Source: Candidatus Terraquivivens tengchongensis (GTDB lineage: Archaea > Thermoproteota > Nitrososphaeria_A > Caldarchaeales > Wolframiiraptoraceae). From it: 64,000 nt of DNA. The notes beneath the pieces are model-generated. The model ran no database searches, was not told where the DNA came from, and was given only the letters and a program-made list of their open reading frames with translations. Of the stretch, positions 9,349-16,445 are shown piece by piece. The stretch covers positions 181,078 to 245,077 of the forward strand of contig JALNJZ010000002.1 in the NCBI GenBank assembly GCA_023261845.1, given 5' to 3'. Every line of letters starts with the position of its first letter. The first letter of the stretch is position 1. Position numbers and translations under genes: made by a program.

Positions 9349-10068
9349 ATGATAGGCCAACCGCAACACATTAAATCAGCAAAAGGCGAAGTTGCAGAAA
9401 GGGTTGTGGTTGCAGGAGACCCGGCTAGGGTTGTTCAACTTTCTAGAATGTTAGAAAGACCAAAACTCGTTAATGAAAACCGTGGCTTTTTGACATACAC
9501 TGGTTACTTTAATGGTACACCAATAACGGTTTCTTGTCACGGCGTTGGCGGCCCATCGTCTGCGATAGTTTTTGAGGAGCTTGTCATGTTGGGTGCCAAG
9601 GTCGTCGTTAGGCTTGGCACGACTGGAGCATTTTTAAAGCACATGAAGATCGGCGAGGTGGTCATTCCGACTGGGGCAGCATACTTAGGGGGAACGCTTG
9701 CGCAGTACGTACCCGATGCCCACATAACCCCTGTTCCTAGCTTTGACGTGACGAATGAGTTGGTTAATACCGCAAGGGAGGAGGGGCTGACGTACCACAT
9801 CGGGCCTGTATTCTCGAGCGATGCATTCTACGCTGAGGACCCTGAGTTCGTCAAGAGGTGGTCAAGCAAAGGCTACATATCCGTCGAGATGGAGTGTGCA
9901 ACACTCTTCGGCCTCGGGATGCTACGTGGTGTTAAAACAGGTGCTATGCTCCTCATAAGCGACAACTTGGCAGAGATGACGCCCATGGTAAATGCTGAAT
10001 ATCTTAAGCCATACGTCGAGAAGGCAGGAAGGGCAGTCTTCAAAGCACTCCTGAGGATAAAGCTCTAA
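9349..10068 (+). CDS. Purine/uridine nucleoside phosphorylase (hexameric PNP family)
   Basis: GDPARV, ENRGF, HGVGGPS, RLGTTG, SSDAFY, VEMECA; ATG 9349 downstream of TTTATAAA. Confidence 0.9.
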   Translation: MIGQPQHIKSAKGEVAERVVVAGDPARVVQLSRMLERPKLVNENRGFLTYTGYFNGTPITVSCHGVGGPSSAIVFEELVMLGAKVVVRLGTTGAFLKHMKIGEVVIPTGAAYLGGTLAQYVPDAHITPVPSFDVTNELVNTAREEGLTYHIGPVFSSDAFYAEDPEFVKRWSSKGYISVEMECATLFGLGMLRGVKTGAMLLISDNLAEMTPMVNAEYLKPYVEKAGRAVFKALLRIKL

Positions 10069-10844
10069 GATACGCTCTCCAAAACCGACTTGAGCGACGT
10101 CACGAAGTCTGACACTTTTTTCTTCGCAACACTAGCAGTATTATCCTCTATTATATTGACTAGCTCGCTACCTACGACTATTCCGTCAACCATACCTACT
10201 AACGTCTTCGCATAGGACAGGTCTCTTATACCGAAACCAGCCACCAAAGATGTATTGCCGACCAGCCCCCTGACTCTTGTAATGGACTTAGCAGGATCTA
10301 TGTAAGCTACTTCGCCCGTAACCGACGATATGCCGATATAAACAAATACTGGATTGTAGCTCGCCATAATCTTGATTGTATTATCTGGATAATTGTAGCT
10401 CGCGAAGAACAGTTTTTCGAGATTTACGGTGTCGCAGGCTTTTGCATATTCGTCCAAAGCCGAAGGACCAACCATGCCCAAGTCCGGTATTAGCGCACTA
10501 GAAGCTCCAGTCTCTGCGACCGAATGCATAAACTCCGTTAACTGTCCAGCGGTATTCAGATAACACAACAGTATTTTCGTTGCGTTAACGTTTTTAGCAA
10601 TATCTAGCGCCATGCCCTTATCTATACCCTGCTCCTTTACTCTCCAATAAGATAGCCTTATGCTCGTGCCGTCATAGATGGCGATTTTAGGTGGTATGCC
10701 AAGTTCAAGTATATCAGCACCAGAACTTTTGAGTATATCACAATATTCCATGAATGCATCAGGTGTCGGATATCCCAAAGTCATGTAGGTTATAAGACAT
10801 TTCTTCTTTCTCGTAATTTCTCGTATGTTCAACAAACCTCGCAC
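10065..10844 (-). CDS. trpA: Tryptophan synthase alpha chain
   Basis: YMTLGYP, LELGIP...YDG (catalytic Glu/Asp), VTG, AGFGI, DGIVVGS; last gene of the trp operon. Confidence 0.88.
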   Translation of the reverse strand: MRGLLNIREITRKKKCLITYMTLGYPTPDAFMEYCDILKSSGADILELGIPPKIAIYDGTSIRLSYWRVKEQGIDKGMALDIAKNVNATKILLCYLNTAGQLTEFMHSVAETGASSALIPDLGMVGPSALDEYAKACDTVNLEKLFFASYNYPDNTIKIMASYNPVFVYIGISSVTGEVAYIDPAKSITRVRGLVGNTSLVAGFGIRDLSYAKTLVGMVDGIVVGSELVNIIEDNTASVAKKKVSDFVTSLKSVLESVS

Positions 10845-11482
10845 CGTTTTGCATTCTTTACGAATTCAAAAATCTTTTTTCTGTCCTTTATACCGGGACT
10901 GACCTCTACACCGGACGATACGTCAACGGCATAAGGCCTCACGCTACGTACAGCTTCTGCCACGTTCTCAGGTCTTAGACCGCCAGCAAGTATTACGGGC
11001 TTAGGGTAAAGGCACTCAACAACCTTTCTACTTATCTCCCAGTCGTGAATCTTACCCTGACCACCGTACCCTCCGACGAGCGAATCAAGCAACAAGGCGT
11101 CGAACTCATTTATTGAGTTTCTCAGAGATTCAACGTCAGAAACTTCATTGACGTTGATCGCCTTTATTAACCTAATATCGGACAACGCATTACGCAACTT
11201 TTCGGCACCCGAAAAGTCGTTACCGTGTATCTGCAATGCAGAAGGTCTAAGCAGGTTACGAACTCTAAGTAGCTCGTCAAAATCTGATGTAACAGTTACT
11301 ACCACGCTATCTACAAATACGGGTACTGTTTTTATCAACTCTTTGGCCCTTTCGTAAGTTAGATTTCTCGGCGATAGTGGTGAGGCTACGACGAATCCTA
11401 CAGCATCGGCGCCAGCATCCACAGCATCCATTAGGTCTTGCTCGCGTGTTATGCCGCAGATCTTAACCCTTACATAGGTCAT
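10829..11482 (-). CDS. trpF: Phosphoribosylanthranilate isomerase
   Basis: VKICGIT, SPR, QIHG, LLDS..GGYGGQG, LAGGLRPENV, VDVSSGVE. Confidence 0.95.
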   Translation of the reverse strand: MTYVRVKICGITREQDLMDAVDAGADAVGFVVASPLSPRNLTYERAKELIKTVPVFVDSVVVTVTSDFDELLRVRNLLRPSALQIHGNDFSGAEKLRNALSDIRLIKAINVNEVSDVESLRNSINEFDALLLDSLVGGYGGQGKIHDWEISRKVVECLYPKPVILAGGLRPENVAEAVRSVRPYAVDVSSGVEVSPGIKDRKKIFEFVKNAKRCEVC

Positions 11483-12257
11483 GGCCTCTCACAAGCTCTC
11501 TTACGCTACTCTCAATGTTCGTTGACGTCATTATGAACGTCCCGACCAAGAAAGCATCTGCACCGAGATTTTTCAGGAGAATAACTTGGGCAGGGCTGTT
11601 TATACCACTCTCACACACGACCAGTTTGCGCTTAACTTTTGCACTCGTAAGTATTCGTTTTGAAATATTGATATCGACCTCCAACATCTCTAAATCACGG
11701 TTGTTTATCCCTAGCATGTCTGCCTCCGTATCCATGCCGGAAAGAAACTCTTCCTCTGTGTGAGTTTCTAAAAGTACTTCAAGACCTAACGAGTGAGCCG
11801 TTTTTATCATGTCGTCTAAATCTTCATCGCACATGCTCTGGTCGTAAACTTTCTTTATTAGGAGAACAGCGCTCGCTCCTAACCTCGATGCGGCCTCAAG
11901 CTGAATACTGCTAACGATTACGTCCTTCATAAGTATTGGTATGCTGACAGTTTCTCTAACAGCTCTCAGCTTATCTAACGAGCCATCGAAGAATGTGTTT
12001 TCCGTCAAAACCGATATGCCTACAGCTCCGCCACGTTCCATAGCCTTAGCCATGCTTTTGACGTCTCCATGTATGCGCCTTCCCATGGTTGGCGACGTCA
12101 GCTTCAGTTCAGCTATAATAGGAATGGCCTTGCAGGCGAGTATCGCCTCTTTTAAGCTCGGAGGTTTTGAAAATGTTGCCGAAGAAGGTACATCATAGTA
12201 GCCGTTCTTCACGCGCTTGATGGCATTTTCGACCAAAACCTTAAGGAAGTTGGCCAT
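11463..12257 (-). CDS. trpC: Indole-3-glycerol phosphate synthase
   Basis: IIAELKLTSP, ISVLTE..FFDGS, LMKD, GINNRDL, CESGI; ATG 12257 has a GGAGGAG SD. Confidence 0.93.
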   Translation of the reverse strand: MANFLKVLVENAIKRVKNGYYDVPSSATFSKPPSLKEAILACKAIPIIAELKLTSPTMGRRIHGDVKSMAKAMERGGAVGISVLTENTFFDGSLDKLRAVRETVSIPILMKDVIVSSIQLEAASRLGASAVLLIKKVYDQSMCDEDLDDMIKTAHSLGLEVLLETHTEEEFLSGMDTEADMLGINNRDLEMLEVDINISKRILTSAKVKRKLVVCESGINSPAQVILLKNLGADAFLVGTFIMTSTNIESSVRELVRGHDLCKG

Positions 12258-13311
12258 ATATCTCCTCCATCCTTTCAAGCTTGGATGGATCACCGCTAAG
12301 TTTCACCAGCTCCTTCAACTTTTTGTACGCCTTGCCACTCTCCAAAGACTCCCTTGCCAGCTCCATACCTTCGAGAAAGCTATCCGCCTGTCCGCCCAAT
12401 AATATGCCCAAAGCAGCGTTGACTAAGACAGCATCCTTCTTAGGGCCGCCTTTACCATTCAGAATCATAAAGGCTACTTGTGCCGCCTCCTCTTGTGTCT
12501 TAATTTCTAGGTCTTCCCGTCTGCAAGGCTCAACACCAAAATCTCTTGGTGTCAACTCAAGAATCCTAACATTATTATGCTTCAACCATGCAACCCTTGT
12601 TTTACCTATTATCGACACCTCATCTAAACCGTCAAGACCGTGCACGATGAAGGCCTCTTCGCATCCCAAGTTCATCAACACATATGCTAGCGTATTCATG
12701 ATTTTATCATCATATACACCTAATAGCTGGGCGTTTACGTCGGCTGGATTCGCAAGGGGTCCGAGAATATTGAATACAGTCCTTATTCCCATCTCTTTCC
12801 TTACCCGCTGAACGTTTTTCATAGCCGGGTGGAAATATGGGGCGTACATGAAGCCTATGCCAACAACCTCGATAGCCCTTTCGACCGATTCAGGCTCCTG
12901 CTCAAGCCTTAAGCCAAACATTTCAAGCAAATCAGCGCTGCCGCACTTTCCAGAAATTGCTCTGTTCCCATGCTTCGCTACTTTGACACCAGCTCCAGCA
13001 ACAACGAAGGCCGCAACCGTGCTTATGTTGAATGTTTTGATCCTATCGCCGCCAGTTCCGCATACATCTATAAGCCTTCCATTTATCTTGGGTTTTACCT
13101 TACAACAGTATTCCTTCATAACCTTTGTGAAAGCGGTAAGTTCTATAACAGACTCACCCTTCATTCTGATTGCCGTCAAGAAGCTTGCAAGCTGGGCATC
13201 AGTAACATTACCATCCATTATGCTCCTCATAGCGCTTTCGGCCTCATCGTAGTTTAAGTCGTACCCCTCAACGAGCTTCCTAAGTATCTCCACAAACATA
13301 TCAAAAACCAT
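12241..13311 (-). CDS. trpD: Anthranilate phosphoribosyltransferase
   Basis: DVCGTGGD, FNIST, KHGNR, GSAD, RTVFNILGPL.NP, GLDE. Confidence 0.96.
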   Translation of the reverse strand: MVFDMFVEILRKLVEGYDLNYDEAESAMRSIMDGNVTDAQLASFLTAIRMKGESVIELTAFTKVMKEYCCKVKPKINGRLIDVCGTGGDRIKTFNISTVAAFVVAGAGVKVAKHGNRAISGKCGSADLLEMFGLRLEQEPESVERAIEVVGIGFMYAPYFHPAMKNVQRVRKEMGIRTVFNILGPLANPADVNAQLLGVYDDKIMNTLAYVLMNLGCEEAFIVHGLDGLDEVSIIGKTRVAWLKHNNVRILELTPRDFGVEPCRREDLEIKTQEEAAQVAFMILNGKGGPKKDAVLVNAALGILLGGQADSFLEGMELARESLESGKAYKKLKELVKLSGDPSKLERMEEIYGQLP

Positions 13312-13882
13312 CCAAGAAATTTTTCAGAATCTTTTTACCATCCTCGCACATCACGGACTCAGGATGGAACTGCACGCCTTCTATAGGATGCTCTATATGG
13401 CGAACACCCATTATCTCATAGTCATCAATAGATTCAGCCGTAATTACAAGACATGAGGGCAAGGATTTCCTCTCCCCGCAAAGGGAATGGTAGCGGGCAA
13501 CCCTCAGAGGATTCTTGACGTTTTTGAAGAGACCCGTACCGTCATGCCTGATAAGACTAGTCTTTCCATGCATGAGTCTCTTCGCCTTTACAATTTTACC
13601 ACCGAAGGCATAAATTATGCTCTGATGCCCTAAGCAAACACCGAGTATAGGTATTTTGGGTCCTAACTCCTTGACTATGTCGATACACGAGCCGACGTAC
13701 TTCGGGTCTTGGGGAGATCCAGGACCTGGCGATAAGATTATCCTATCAGGCTCCAGCATTTTAGCACGCTCCAAAGTTATCTCATCATTCCTGTACACAA
13801 GAGGTCTGCCGCCCAATTCACCGACGTACTGGACTAAGTTGTAAACGAAGGAATCGTAATTATCTATGATGAGAACCCTCAT
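13301..13882 (-). CDS. trpG: Anthranilate synthase component II (glutamine amidotransferase)
   Basis: IDNYDSF, SPGPG, GVCLGHQ, RYHSL, GVQFHPES. Confidence 0.96.
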   Translation of the reverse strand: MRVLIIDNYDSFVYNLVQYVGELGGRPLVYRNDEITLERAKMLEPDRIILSPGPGSPQDPKYVGSCIDIVKELGPKIPILGVCLGHQSIIYAFGGKIVKAKRLMHGKTSLIRHDGTGLFKNVKNPLRVARYHSLCGERKSLPSCLVITAESIDDYEIMGVRHIEHPIEGVQFHPESVMCEDGKKILKNFLDGF

Positions 13883-15195
13883 TTTCCTTCACCACTAGAC
13901 ATCTTCAACGCTTCCACGAGCGGGGCAAGTTTGTGTTCAGTCTCCATCCATTCGTTTTCAGCCTTTGACTCCGCGACTATACCTGCGCCTGCTTGAATGA
14001 ATGCTCTACCATTGTTGATGAACATCGTCCTAATCGTTATCGCAAAGTTTGAGTTGCCGTTGAATGATATGTAGCCGACCGAGCCAGCGTACGGTCCCCT
14101 CCTCGTAGGCTCCAATTCCTCTATGATCTCCATCGCTCTAACCTTTGGCGCACCCGTTACAGTGCCTGCTGGAAACACGGCTCTAAGCGCGTCGTAGCAA
14201 TCGCAACCTTCCCTTAGTTTACCGACAACCCTTGAGACTATGTGAAGCACGTGACTGTACTTGTAGACCTTCTTCAGCTCCGAGACCCGCACGCTACCAA
14301 ATTTTGAGACCTTGCCTAAGTCATTCCTCGCAAGGTCGACGAGCATCATGTGCTCAGAAAGTTCTTTTGGGTCATTGAGCAGGTCCTTTCTTAGCATCTT
14401 ATCGTTTCCGCGTGGTCTTGTGCCAGCGATGGGCATAGTTTCGACGAAATTACCATGGACCCTAACGAGCGCTTCTGGGCTGGAGCCTATGATGTATCTT
14501 TCCCCCATCTTCAAGATGTACATATAAGGAGAAGGATTGAGCCCACGTAACGCTGAATAGAACGTAATCACGCTGCCCTTAACGTTAAAACTGTACTTCT
14601 TTGATAGGACAACTTGGAAAGCATCACCGGCGGCTATGTATTCCTTGACAACCTCTACCATTGAGATGAACTTCTCTTTATCAACGTTGGGCCTGAGCTC
14701 CGTGTGTAATAGGGGTTGTTGCTCCGGCTTTTTCACGAGTAAGTGCGTAATCTCATCAAGTCTATCCTCCTTAAGGTAATAGTAGTGTACCCTCCTGTCC
14801 TTTCCATTAAATAGTAGGCCGTCATAGTATGCTCCAAACTCCATGTCTGGAAATCCATGGTCATCGACGGTTTTCTGAGGCAACTTTTCCAAGTACCTGA
14901 CCAGATCGTATGATACGTAGCCAACGGCGCCTCCAGCAAATTTTAACTTTGCATGGTTGTGATGTATCTGACCTACAGCTTCTCTCAAAGTTTGCAAGGG
15001 CTCCGATGTCCTTTTGCGCAGTTCGCCCTCGGGCGACTTAATAACGCACACACCATCTTTAACTATAACAGTTTTCAGAGGATTAAAGCCCACTAAGCAC
15101 TGTTGGGCAATCCTACGCCTTGAATTTGTAAACTCTATGAGGTATGCATATTCGTAATGCTCGCTCAGGTTTGTGAAAACTTCAATGGGTGACAA
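13879..15195 (-). CDS. trpE: Anthranilate synthase component I (start uncertain; frame stays open to 15267, see findings)
   Basis: [57 protein letters not shown]. Confidence 0.95.
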
Positions 15196-15238
15196 ATCAG
15201 TGTATACGTCTTTAAACCTTGGCCGTTCGTATGTCTGA

Positions 15239-15256
15239 TCAATGCCAAAGGCACAT
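15239..15256 (-). other. Mini-ORF MCLWH* upstream of trpE; candidate Trp-sensing +1 frameshift site (CTT TGG)
   Basis: Minus strand ATG TGC CTT TGG CAT TGA. The +1 frame (TTT GGC ATT GAT...) is the trpE frame. Confidence 0.55.
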
Positions 15257-15292
15257 GCCCCGCAACCTTAGCGTAGTTACGAAGATTGATTG

Positions 15293-15302
15293 TATTTAAT
15301 AA
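15293..15302 (-). promoter_or_regulatory. Putative TATA box of the trp operon
   Basis: Minus-strand TTATTAAATA about 37-46 nt upstream of ATG 15256. Confidence 0.5.
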
Positions 15303-15458
15303 TTAGTGCACAAAAATGCTCAACGCAAAATCGAGAATAATGGCCCAGAAAAACGACGTTTAAACCCAAAAGGATCTAAGTTCTTTTTGAATGTACAATT
15401 CTGTTACATTAAAAACGGCTCCATGGTTATGTTTAGATACTGCCCATAGCAGTTATGC

Positions 15459-16445
15459 ATGCGTATGAGAGAGCGGAACACCATAACGGTATGGGTTCCT
15501 TCTAGCTCCGCAAACCTCGGACCAGGTTTCGACGTGCTTTCCATAGCACTTAGAGAACCGTCCCTAAAAGTGAGCCTGTCATTCTGTGGCGGTGATAATA
15601 TCAAGCTTGTACTCAAAGGTAAATATGGAGAAACTCTTTGCGCCAGCCCAGAAGTTCACTCCGGATGCAGAGCACTTAGAGCACTCATGAACAAGTACAG
15701 CATCAATGAAGGGCTTGAAATGGTTGTGTATGTTGACATACCGCCGAAAAAGGGCCTCGGACTTTCTGGTGCAGAGGCCGCTGGTGCCGTAGTCGCATTA
15801 AACGAATTGCTTTCCTTGGCACTATCGAAAGATGAGTTAGTTCACTACGCATCATATGGTGAGCCGGAAGGGCATTTGGATAACGTGTCTGCCTCGGTAT
15901 GCGGAGGCTTTAACATCGTGGTAAAAGACTACGTCAGCGGAATGCCGCGCGTTTATAACTTCAGACCACCATCAGACCTTGGCACAGTCGTCATAGTTCC
16001 GAATATAGAAAAGAAATCCACGGAGGATGCAAGAAAGGCCGTTCCCGCATTCGTCCACAAGAGCGATATGATCGGGAACATTTCCAGAGTTGCTGCAGTA
16101 TCTGTAGGTTTTGTCACAGGCGACGTGGAGTGCATTCTGAGAAACATAGCATGGGATACTGTTGTCGAGAGGGCTAGAGCTGATTCTCAGGTGTACGGAA
16201 ATGGTATAGACTGGCGATTCTTGGAAGAAGAGAAGCTCTACTTGTTCAAAAAGTACGGCATCGCAGAGACAATAAGCGGTGCTGGCCCCTCAAGGATTTT
16301 GTGGTATAGTATATCACGGCATTCACAGGTGGTAGATGAGGCCTTAGGCTATGTTGTAGACCGTATAAAAGAGCTCGGGTATAGCGTGGAAGGGATTTTC
16401 AAGACGTATCCGTCTGGAATTGGTGCGTATAAATTATCGGAATGA
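15459..16445 (+). CDS. thrB: Homoserine kinase (GHMP family)
   Basis: PSSSANLGPGFD, PPKKGLGLSGA, HLDNV, ISGAGPS. Confidence 0.88.
   Translation: MRMRERNTITVWVPSSSANLGPGFDVLSIALREPSLKVSLSFCGGDNIKLVLKGKYGETLCASPEVHSGCRALRALMNKYSINEGLEMVVYVDIPPKKGLGLSGAEAAGAVVALNELLSLALSKDELVHYASYGEPEGHLDNVSASVCGGFNIVVKDYVSGMPRVYNFRPPSDLGTVVIVPNIEKKSTEDARKAVPAFVHKSDMIGNISRVAAVSVGFVTGDVECILRNIAWDTVVERARADSQVYGNGIDWRFLEEEKLYLFKKYGIAETISGAGPSRILWYSISRHSQVVDEALGYVVDRIKELGYSVEGIFKTYPSGIGAYKLSE

Follow-up and report, generated by a model that had tools for sequence, protein, structure and literature searches.

The bacterial prfB gene, which encodes RF2 and carries the programmed +1 frameshift site CUU_UGA_C, is among the closest described counterparts of the element considered here, a candidate programmed +1 ribosomal frameshift site, CUU_UGG_C, at the start of trpE (anthranilate synthase component I) of Candidatus Terraquivivens tengchongensis, which was analysed within a window of 64,000 nucleotides (nt) of DNA from this archaeon. 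In both genes a short zero-frame open reading frame (ORF) stands at the gene start with the body in the +1 frame, the P-site codon is a CUU that slips, or in trpE would slip, onto UUU, the slow A-site codon is, or in trpE would be, one whose decoding reports the product of the pathway itself, and a G-rich stretch resembling a Shine–Dalgarno (SD) sequence lies nearby upstream, here at positions -11 to -6 from the TTT, with a spacing like that of the SD-like element of prfB. However, the A-site codon of prfB is a stop read by a protein factor, whereas that of trpE is the sense codon UGG, read by a tRNA, and would sense Trp-tRNA. Furthermore, prfB is bacterial and slips at about codon 26, whereas the trpE sites are archaeal, often on apparently leaderless messages, would slip at codon 3–8 and, unlike prfB with its CUU, also use GUU, AUU and UUU in the P site.

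The heptamer CUU_AGG_C of yeast Ty1 and ABP140 is one base away from the CUU_UGG_C of trpE. According to the part of a 2016 review that treats this site, Ty1 combines, as trpE would, a tRNA-limited A-site sense codon with GGC in the +1 frame and needs no downstream structure, CUU_AGG_C alone giving about 40% +1 shifting, and the causes named there are a scarce A-site tRNA, re-pairing of the P-site tRNA-Leu one base on and an abundant tRNA-Gly for GGC (PMC5009743). The limiting tRNA of Ty1 is constitutively rare and the ratio of products is fixed, whereas the charging of the limiting tRNA at trpE would vary with the amino acid of the operon; in addition, Ty1 re-pairs on UUA, whereas trpE, in an archaeal host, would re-pair on UUU. 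The antizyme gene has, as trpE would have, a metabolite-responsive +1 shift that closes a feedback loop on its own pathway, but polyamines promote the antizyme shift, whose product represses synthesis, whereas at trpE shortage would promote a shift that yields the biosynthetic enzyme itself; antizyme also differs from trpE in being eukaryotic and in placing a stop codon at its A site.

The trpL attenuator of enterobacteria shares a leader ORF with Trp codons in front of trpE and, under the proposed mechanism, the use of ribosome speed at UGG as a report on charged tRNA-Trp. The Trp codons of trpL are in tandem, whereas the archaeal leader contains a single TGG with a stop 0–45 codons past it, and the overlap of this leader with trpE leaves no room for terminator and antiterminator hairpins of the trpL type; the output would be a change of reading frame at the archaeal trpE as opposed to transcription read-through at trpL. 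A search of 15000–15480 against Rfam gave no family match at E up to 1, and a trpL-type attenuator is ruled out by this result together with the single TGG and the overlap. 'Hungry codon' frameshifting under starvation was reportedly described in E. coli by Gallant and co-workers as an error process; the trpE site would share with it the +1 slip from an empty A site at the codon of the limiting aminoacyl-tRNA, with the difference that its use would be natural, conserved and productive. On productive starvation-induced frameshifting, the corresponding part of the 2016 review states that 'no examples are known', and the archaeal frameshift cases given there are few, with none in amino-acid biosynthesis (PMC5009743). 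Our search of the open-access PMC and bioRxiv literature, with subscription journals and supplements outside its range, found no description of a trpE frameshift device. The trpE site of the window has the sequence features by which a programmed +1 site is recognized, and trpE here very probably needs a +1 ribosomal frameshift in order to be translated.

Two reading frames at the start of trpE

All of the elements of the site lie on the minus strand, and the trpE frame is offset by +1 from that of the short ORF. The initiating frame is that of the short ORF, ATG TGC CTT TGG CAT TGA (MCLWH and stop; 15239..15256), with ATG at 15256–15254, CTT at 15250–15248, TGG at 15247–15245 and TGA at 15241–15239. 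It contains the heptamer CTT_TGG_C (15244..15250), which would place CUU in the P site and UGG (Trp) in the A site, and from which a +1 shift would read UUU and then GGC. The trpE body in the +1 frame extends over 13879..15246, from the GGC at 15246 to the stop at 13881–13879. Its frame is open from a TAA at 15270–15268, and from there it contains no ATG, GTG or TTG until the TTG at 15195–15193 (15193..15195), the sole canonical in-frame start, which is rejected as the start of trpE for the reasons given below. When CTTT is read as a single step, the product begins MCLGIDQTYER, this translation being meaningful for the first 298 residues only as a second in-frame CTTT occurs at residue 299. 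An earlier note on this DNA, which had reported the lack of an in-frame ATG, the TAA, a TATA-like box and the pentapeptide, and which had claimed that a +1 shift at CTT lands in the trpE frame, was thus accurate in each of these statements.

Upstream of the short ORF, the TATA-like box ATTAAATA (15293..15300) lies 44 nt before the ATG and is kept in 7/7 genus members; by the archaeal rule for the spacing between TATA box and transcript start, it predicts a start about 30 nt downstream, near 15270. An SD-like AAGGT (15265..15269) is found 8 nt upstream of ATG 15256, again in 7/7 genus members, and the 16S 3' end of this genome (contig C12) is GGATCACCTCCT, so that the anti-SD sequence is present. 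AAGGT overlaps a TTG at 15265–15263, at the -18 position, which is the site of the short-ORF ATG in other genera. Between the AAGGT and the slip site, the G-rich element CGGGGC (15257..15262) includes G 15258, which is at -9 from TTT.

A genome search found trpE in 19 of 41 relatives, and the TrpE proteins of the other six species of the genus are 75–82% identical. The sequence ATG TGY CTT TGG is kept in all seven species of the genus, and none of them has a start in the trpE frame before TTT; the six other species have CAN after TGG, and their short ORFs stop 1–5 codons past TGG. All 20 pairwise differences at -10 to -2 within the genus fall on third positions of the short ORF, which are second positions of the trpE frame. 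The fallback starts are not conserved: TTG 15195 is replaced by TTA, CTA or CTC in five of the seven genus members, at the place of ATT 15243 five members have AGT and one has ATC, and no near-cognate start codon is conserved in the genus (g1). Both codons were rejected as starts, and TTG 15195 would in addition delete a predicted strand.

The trpE product matches the NCBIfam family TIGR01820 (TrpE-arch) with E 9.6e-143 and 476.7 bits, under the cut-off of 512.05, and TIGR00564 with 452.5 bits against a cut-off of 517.7; the presence of trpG-D-C-F-A directly downstream supports TrpE over PabB. In the AlphaFold2 model calculated on alignment A1 (mean predicted local distance difference test score, pLDDT, 86.2), body residues 11–15 (RFKDV) form a strand, residues 11–20 have a mean pLDDT of 91 and disorder is confined to residues 1–6. 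The solved relatives in the PDB have 11–52 residues ahead of the Leu-Ser-Pro-Ile position. On the model, the N-terminal stretch upstream of TTG 15195 is part of the protein, and the claim of the earlier note that a start at this TTG cuts off an N-terminal segment is borne out by the predicted loss of strand 11–15.

The earlier note had also suggested that reads be mapped in order to exclude an indel. At least 85% of the sampled words of the window occur in each of 14 hot-spring metagenome runs from six studies, and contigs from three DNA runs of three studies (X1, X5 and X10), one of which may be the source of the window itself, cover 14900–15500 with zero inserted or missing letters. The sole substitution in these contigs is G>A at 15208 (GAC>GAT), which is synonymous in the trpE frame. 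An assembly error is ruled out by the base-for-base agreement of the three DNA assemblies at the site. A contig from an RNA library (X16) covers 14984–15236 only, ending short of the shift site, and is uninformative on transcript ends.

Conservation of the arrangement across the phylum

With profile A1, which comprises 17 TrpE sequences, trpE was detected in 37 of the 76 genomes that represent the class of the window, and across the phylum 215 of the 401 genomes sampled gave a match. The 5' regions of 105 genes were read: 35 from the class, i.e. all of those with the 5' end on the contig (G012 and G075, cut by contig ends, were excluded), one named record (L022) and 69 from other families, chosen among the rows with better scores so as to represent many families; f14, f16, f20, f25, f32 and f41, whose scores were low, lie outside this sample, and the named records L021 and L023, which repeat the L161 and f5 types, were left out of the count. 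The detector pattern consisted of a start codon, 2–7 codons, NTT and TGG ahead of a trpE body reading TTT GGN. Of the 105 regions, 86, representing 19 families, contain an in-frame TTT GGN with a start codon ahead of it in the -1 frame, and the pattern is present in all 35 readable regions of the class; the out-of-frame ATG-NNN-CTT-TGG that the earlier note had proposed to look for in relatives is therefore found throughout the genus and, in the wider form NTT-TGG, across the phylum, an outcome that clearly favours the frameshift. The TTT GGN is always located 32–44 codons ahead of the conserved LLES block.

Among these 86 regions, the short ORF starts with ATG in 76, TTG in nine and GTG in one, and the distance from the start to TGG is 15 nt in 51, 18 nt in 21, 21 nt in six, 9 nt in seven and 24 nt in one. 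The P-site codon is CTT in 45, GTT in 29, ATT in eight and TTT in four, and the A-site codon is TGG in all 86. The CUU-U context, which the earlier note had singled out as slippery, is thus found in 45 of the 86, including the window, but the rule that covers them all is the wider NUU_U. The short peptides take forms such as M-x-G-G-x-[LV]-W, M-R-[DY]-x-V-W and M-G-G-H-L-W. In L204 (G241), L111 (G008) and L121 (G073) an in-frame ATG or GTG directly follows TTT GGC (FGM... or FGV...), which could serve as a second, frameshift-independent start. The same detector found the pattern in only one of 66 bacterial trpE controls, at a different position, so that coincidence does not explain the archaeal pattern, and the archaeal records L030 and L057 have ordinary ATG starts. 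Ordinary in-frame starts are also found in the genomes that do not contain the motif, namely those of family f21 (5/5), which have Sulfolobus-like N-termini with an SD sequence, those of family f10 (10/10), L149, L160 and L170.

The two-frame architecture is conserved over these families, and the change of frame within it is confined to TTTGG. In 42 of the 86 regions the trpE frame lacks ATG, GTG and TTG from the upstream stop to TTT, and in 13 a stop codon abuts TTT (TAG TTT GGC); conversely, the stop of the short ORF follows TGG immediately in four of the first 80 regions and lies 1–45 codons on elsewhere. Since the trpE frame is closed before TTT in some genomes and the short frame is closed after TGG in others, the hand-over between frames is limited to TTTGG if one mechanism serves them all. 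Although Phe, Leu, Val and Ile have synonymous codons, none of the 86 regions has TTC in place of TTT or a P-site codon other than NTT; the constraint is therefore on the nucleotides, as re-pairing from NUU to UUU requires, and selection on either peptide alone would not be expected to yield this invariance. The conservation of the site also goes beyond coding need, with TTTGG at a set distance from LLES and variable positions flanking it. In a comparison by codon position of 59 sequences in nine groups, differences upstream of the site are fewest at the third positions of the trpE frame (93 versus 126 and 158), whereas downstream of it they are most numerous at the trpE third positions (2456 versus 1847 and 1653).

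A natural variant is provided by L203 of family f15, which is without TGG and in which the homologous ATG runs in frame into trpE (MRNHL-DNQTTKQ...). Its sister L204 has the same promoter and SD sequence, reads ATG AGG AAT CGT CTT TGG CAT... and has trpE in the +1 frame; L203 has six bases where L204 has seven. This comparison shows that the short-ORF ATG serves as the initiation codon of trpE in the L203 lineage, and the fused gene is an archaeal counterpart of the prfB genes that are without a frameshift.

The initiation signals fall into two classes. In 36 of the 86 regions a TATA-like 8-mer begins 28–33 nt before the start of the short ORF (at exactly 30 nt in 20), and this class includes 14/14 members of family f5 and 8/8 members of genera g2 and g3. 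Because of this spacing, which follows the archaeal rule, their mRNAs are presumed to be leaderless, with the transcript starting on the A of the short-ORF ATG. In another 42 regions the TATA box is farther upstream and an SD-like 4-mer is situated 4–18 nt before the short-ORF start, as with the GGAGG found 7 nt before the ATG in L022; the genus of the window belongs to this second class, with a distant TATA box and AAGGT before ATG 15256. In both classes the predicted promoter and SD-like signals address the start codon of the short ORF. The G at -9 from TTT is invariant in 86/86, and the stretch from -11 to -6 is G-rich across families.

In many near relatives profile A1 does not find trpE (genera g4, 0/3; g5, 0/8; g7, 0/3), and it gives no match in 12 of 13 genomes of g8; several of these genomes are more than 95% complete. 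Judged by profile A1 alone, Trp synthesis may be patchy in the class.

The genome of the window was also scanned for the same device, defined as ATG, 2–9 codons, NTT, a codon starting with T and a +1 ORF of at least 200 codons with no in-frame start upstream. The scan gave 28 matches, nine of which were checked in Pfam: homoserine dehydrogenase, a W/Y tRNA synthetase, TatC, HerA, a RecA-like protein, DUF92, an NAD synthase-like protein and two unmatched proteins. None of the nine acts in the biosynthesis of an amino acid that corresponds to its A-site codon, and the scan matches other than trpE have plausible in-frame starts and were taken as chance. A RecA/KaiC-like ATPase gene (G000:C9:71064-71897, minus strand; L211) has ATG CGA GTT TGG TGA in the -1 frame upstream, with a heptamer of the same type, which is probably due to chance given an in-frame ATG five codons downstream. 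In the gene of a class I tRNA synthetase of the Trp/Tyr type (G000:C6:81306-82631; L207), the first canonical start follows 25 open codons, and ATG...CTT TTG occurs out of frame upstream; this gene probably has an ordinary start, since the Pfam domain of its product does not begin until residue 92.

Downstream of trpE, on the same strand, the gene block 10065..13882 contains trpG (13301–13882), trpD (12241–13311), trpC (11463–12293), trpF (10829–11482) and trpA (10065–10844). Each ORF overlaps its neighbour, as the earlier note had stated, and the stop of trpE and the start of trpG share ATGA. On the other side, a homoserine kinase gene (thrB; 15459–16445, plus strand) diverges from the trp operon, and the shared intergenic region of 200 nt holds both promoters. 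This region includes TGTGCACTAAT (15302..15312, minus strand), a promoter-proximal motif with the palindrome GTGCAC, which is outside the frameshift device proper. The motif is common to genera g1 and g2, with variation, and is situated upstream of the TATA box in g1 and just downstream of it in g2 (L108, L110 and others). It is a candidate operator through which a transcriptional regulator may act on the trp operon, and the g1 promoter looks remodelled relative to that of g2.

Proposed mechanism and alternative explanations

The full proposal, that trpE is expressed by a programmed +1 frameshift that fires when Trp-tRNA is scarce, is in our judgement probable. We infer that ribosomal slippage is the cause of the frame change, that it would rise with Trp-tRNA shortage and that the downstream genes would be coupled to it. 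Translation would initiate at AUG 15256, and possibly also at UUG 15265, on a message with a very short leader, and once Met-Cys-Leu had been read, peptidyl-tRNA-Leu would occupy CUU in the P site, the A-site codon being UGG. With prompt delivery of Trp-tRNA, Trp-His would be read and the pentapeptide would be released at UGA with no TrpE being made. With charged tRNA-Trp scarce, the A site would be empty, the P-site tRNA would re-pair on UUU, GGC (Gly) would be read and trpE would be translated, and translation would then pass into trpGDCFA through overlap coupling; the product would have the N-terminus Met-Cys-Leu-Gly-Ile-Asp. The same device (start codon, 2–7 codons, NUU_UGG_N) heads trpE in at least 19 families, where plentiful charged tRNA-Trp would lead to termination after 0–45 codons and scarcity to TrpE. 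This direction of response suits a biosynthetic operon, and the closeness of the site to the start, with the P-site codon at codon 3–8, may favour slippage. A slip of -2 would give the same frame and is here indistinguishable from one of +1. ARAGORN found genes for tRNA-Leu(GAG) and tRNA-Leu(UAG). A quadruplet-decoding tRNA was considered and rejected, as the four-base 'anticodons' given by ARAGORN were not among the tRNAs listed by an intron-aware run, which resolved intron-containing tRNA-Ile and tRNA-Gly.

Several points weigh against this proposal. The frameshift, the transcript start and the Trp response are all predictions from sequence, and the action of an SD-like element on elongating archaeal ribosomes is putative. 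The invariance of UGG is inseparable from the need of the new frame to read UUU and then GGN. A gene for tRNA-Trp was not found in the genome by ARAGORN. In family f15 the codon-position counts upstream of the site are reversed (66/22/16). In family f10 (L154, L157 and L190–L197) TTTGG is lost and an in-frame ATG or GTG occupies that position (M/V-A-[AT]-R-T-I); some members retain an out-of-frame ATG 7 nt upstream (ATG ACT CGT GGC...) that opens a short ORF without a Trp codon, and the arrangement of this family may be a decayed form of the device. Finally, a canonical in-frame start before TTT is absent throughout the genus and in 42 of the 86 regions, but in the other 44 an in-frame GTG (in most cases at -9, within GGTGG) or ATG (at -6 or -3) could start trpE directly. 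Family f5 keeps the T that makes this GTG in 13 of 14 members. Some lineages may start trpE in both ways, or GGUG may be kept as an SD-like stimulator.

Of the alternatives to a Trp-responsive frameshift, the one that survives best, although we regard it as unlikely, is a constitutive +1 frameshift, which would set a fixed low rate of trpE translation or correct a tolerated indel, with any control by Trp being transcriptional and acting through, for example, the GTGCAC motif. This explanation agrees just as well with all of the sequence evidence for a frameshift, UGG is unavoidable in a site that has to read UUU GGN once the ribosome has slipped, and a conserved motif containing a palindrome is indeed present at the promoter. 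A slip at NUU_U, however, would tolerate any codon starting with U, or a stop as in prfB, and none was seen: the A-site codon is the Trp codon in all 86 leaders of an operon for Trp biosynthesis. Moreover, the genome-wide scan, with nine of its matches checked in Pfam, found no other biosynthetic gene with this architecture, and conservation over 19 families favours function rather than tolerance.

It is slightly less likely still that no frameshift takes place, i.e. that the short ORF encodes a separate leader peptide with one Trp and that TrpE starts independently at GTG or ATG, at a non-canonical codon or at a downstream TTG (15195 in the window). Such a start would account for the in-frame GTG or ATG 3–9 nt from TTT in the 44 regions and for the use of that position as an ordinary start in f10, and in the extended protein the alignment to TIGR01820 begins at residue 20, near TTG 15195. 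On the other hand, the 42 regions with no canonical in-frame start and the 13 in which a stop abuts TTT do not fit, TTG 15195 and ATT 15243 are each lost in most g1 species, and a start at this TTG would remove the predicted strand, whereas the solved relatives have residues ahead of it. The TATA spacing and SD motifs point to the short-ORF ATG, which L203 uses as the start of trpE. In addition, stalling at UGG would place the ribosome over any start at -9 to -3, so that the regulation would run in the wrong direction.

The remaining explanation, that the frame is corrected in nucleic acid by transcriptional slippage or editing at TTT or that it reflects a sequencing artefact or a pseudogene, is very improbable: the loss of one base from TTT would lead to the protein that the +1 slip gives, but the three assemblies agree at the site, the arrangement recurs in 86 genomes, the trpE bodies are intact with third-position variation, and a run of three Ts is far below the polymerase slippage sites known to us. 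The runs treated in the part of the 2016 review that deals with polymerase slippage are of about 7–9 or more (PMC5009743).

With the Trp-responsive frameshift as the preferred explanation, we lean towards an ancient switch that spans the phylum, in which most Trp-making archaea of the Nitrososphaerota type would turn on the trp operon by a +1 slip at UGG; a single UGG, about five codons into a leaderless or SD-led mRNA, would allow charged tRNA-Trp to set the frame. If this is true, the trpE site would be the first natural case of productive 'hungry-codon' frameshifting and the first amino-acid-sensing recoding device, and the trpE starts currently annotated in these lineages would be incorrect or arbitrary and in need of re-annotation. 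Very few programmed frameshifts sense a cellular quantity, namely those of RF2 and antizyme, and the UGG site of trpE would add the missing example. It would also provide a natural sense-codon +1 site for archaeal ribosomes, and we know of almost no mechanistic data on such sites in archaea. To our knowledge, most archaea are without known attenuators and many archaeal mRNAs are leaderless; the trpE device, if confirmed, would be an archaeal functional counterpart of attenuation and would show how the synthesis of an amino acid in archaea can be under translational control.

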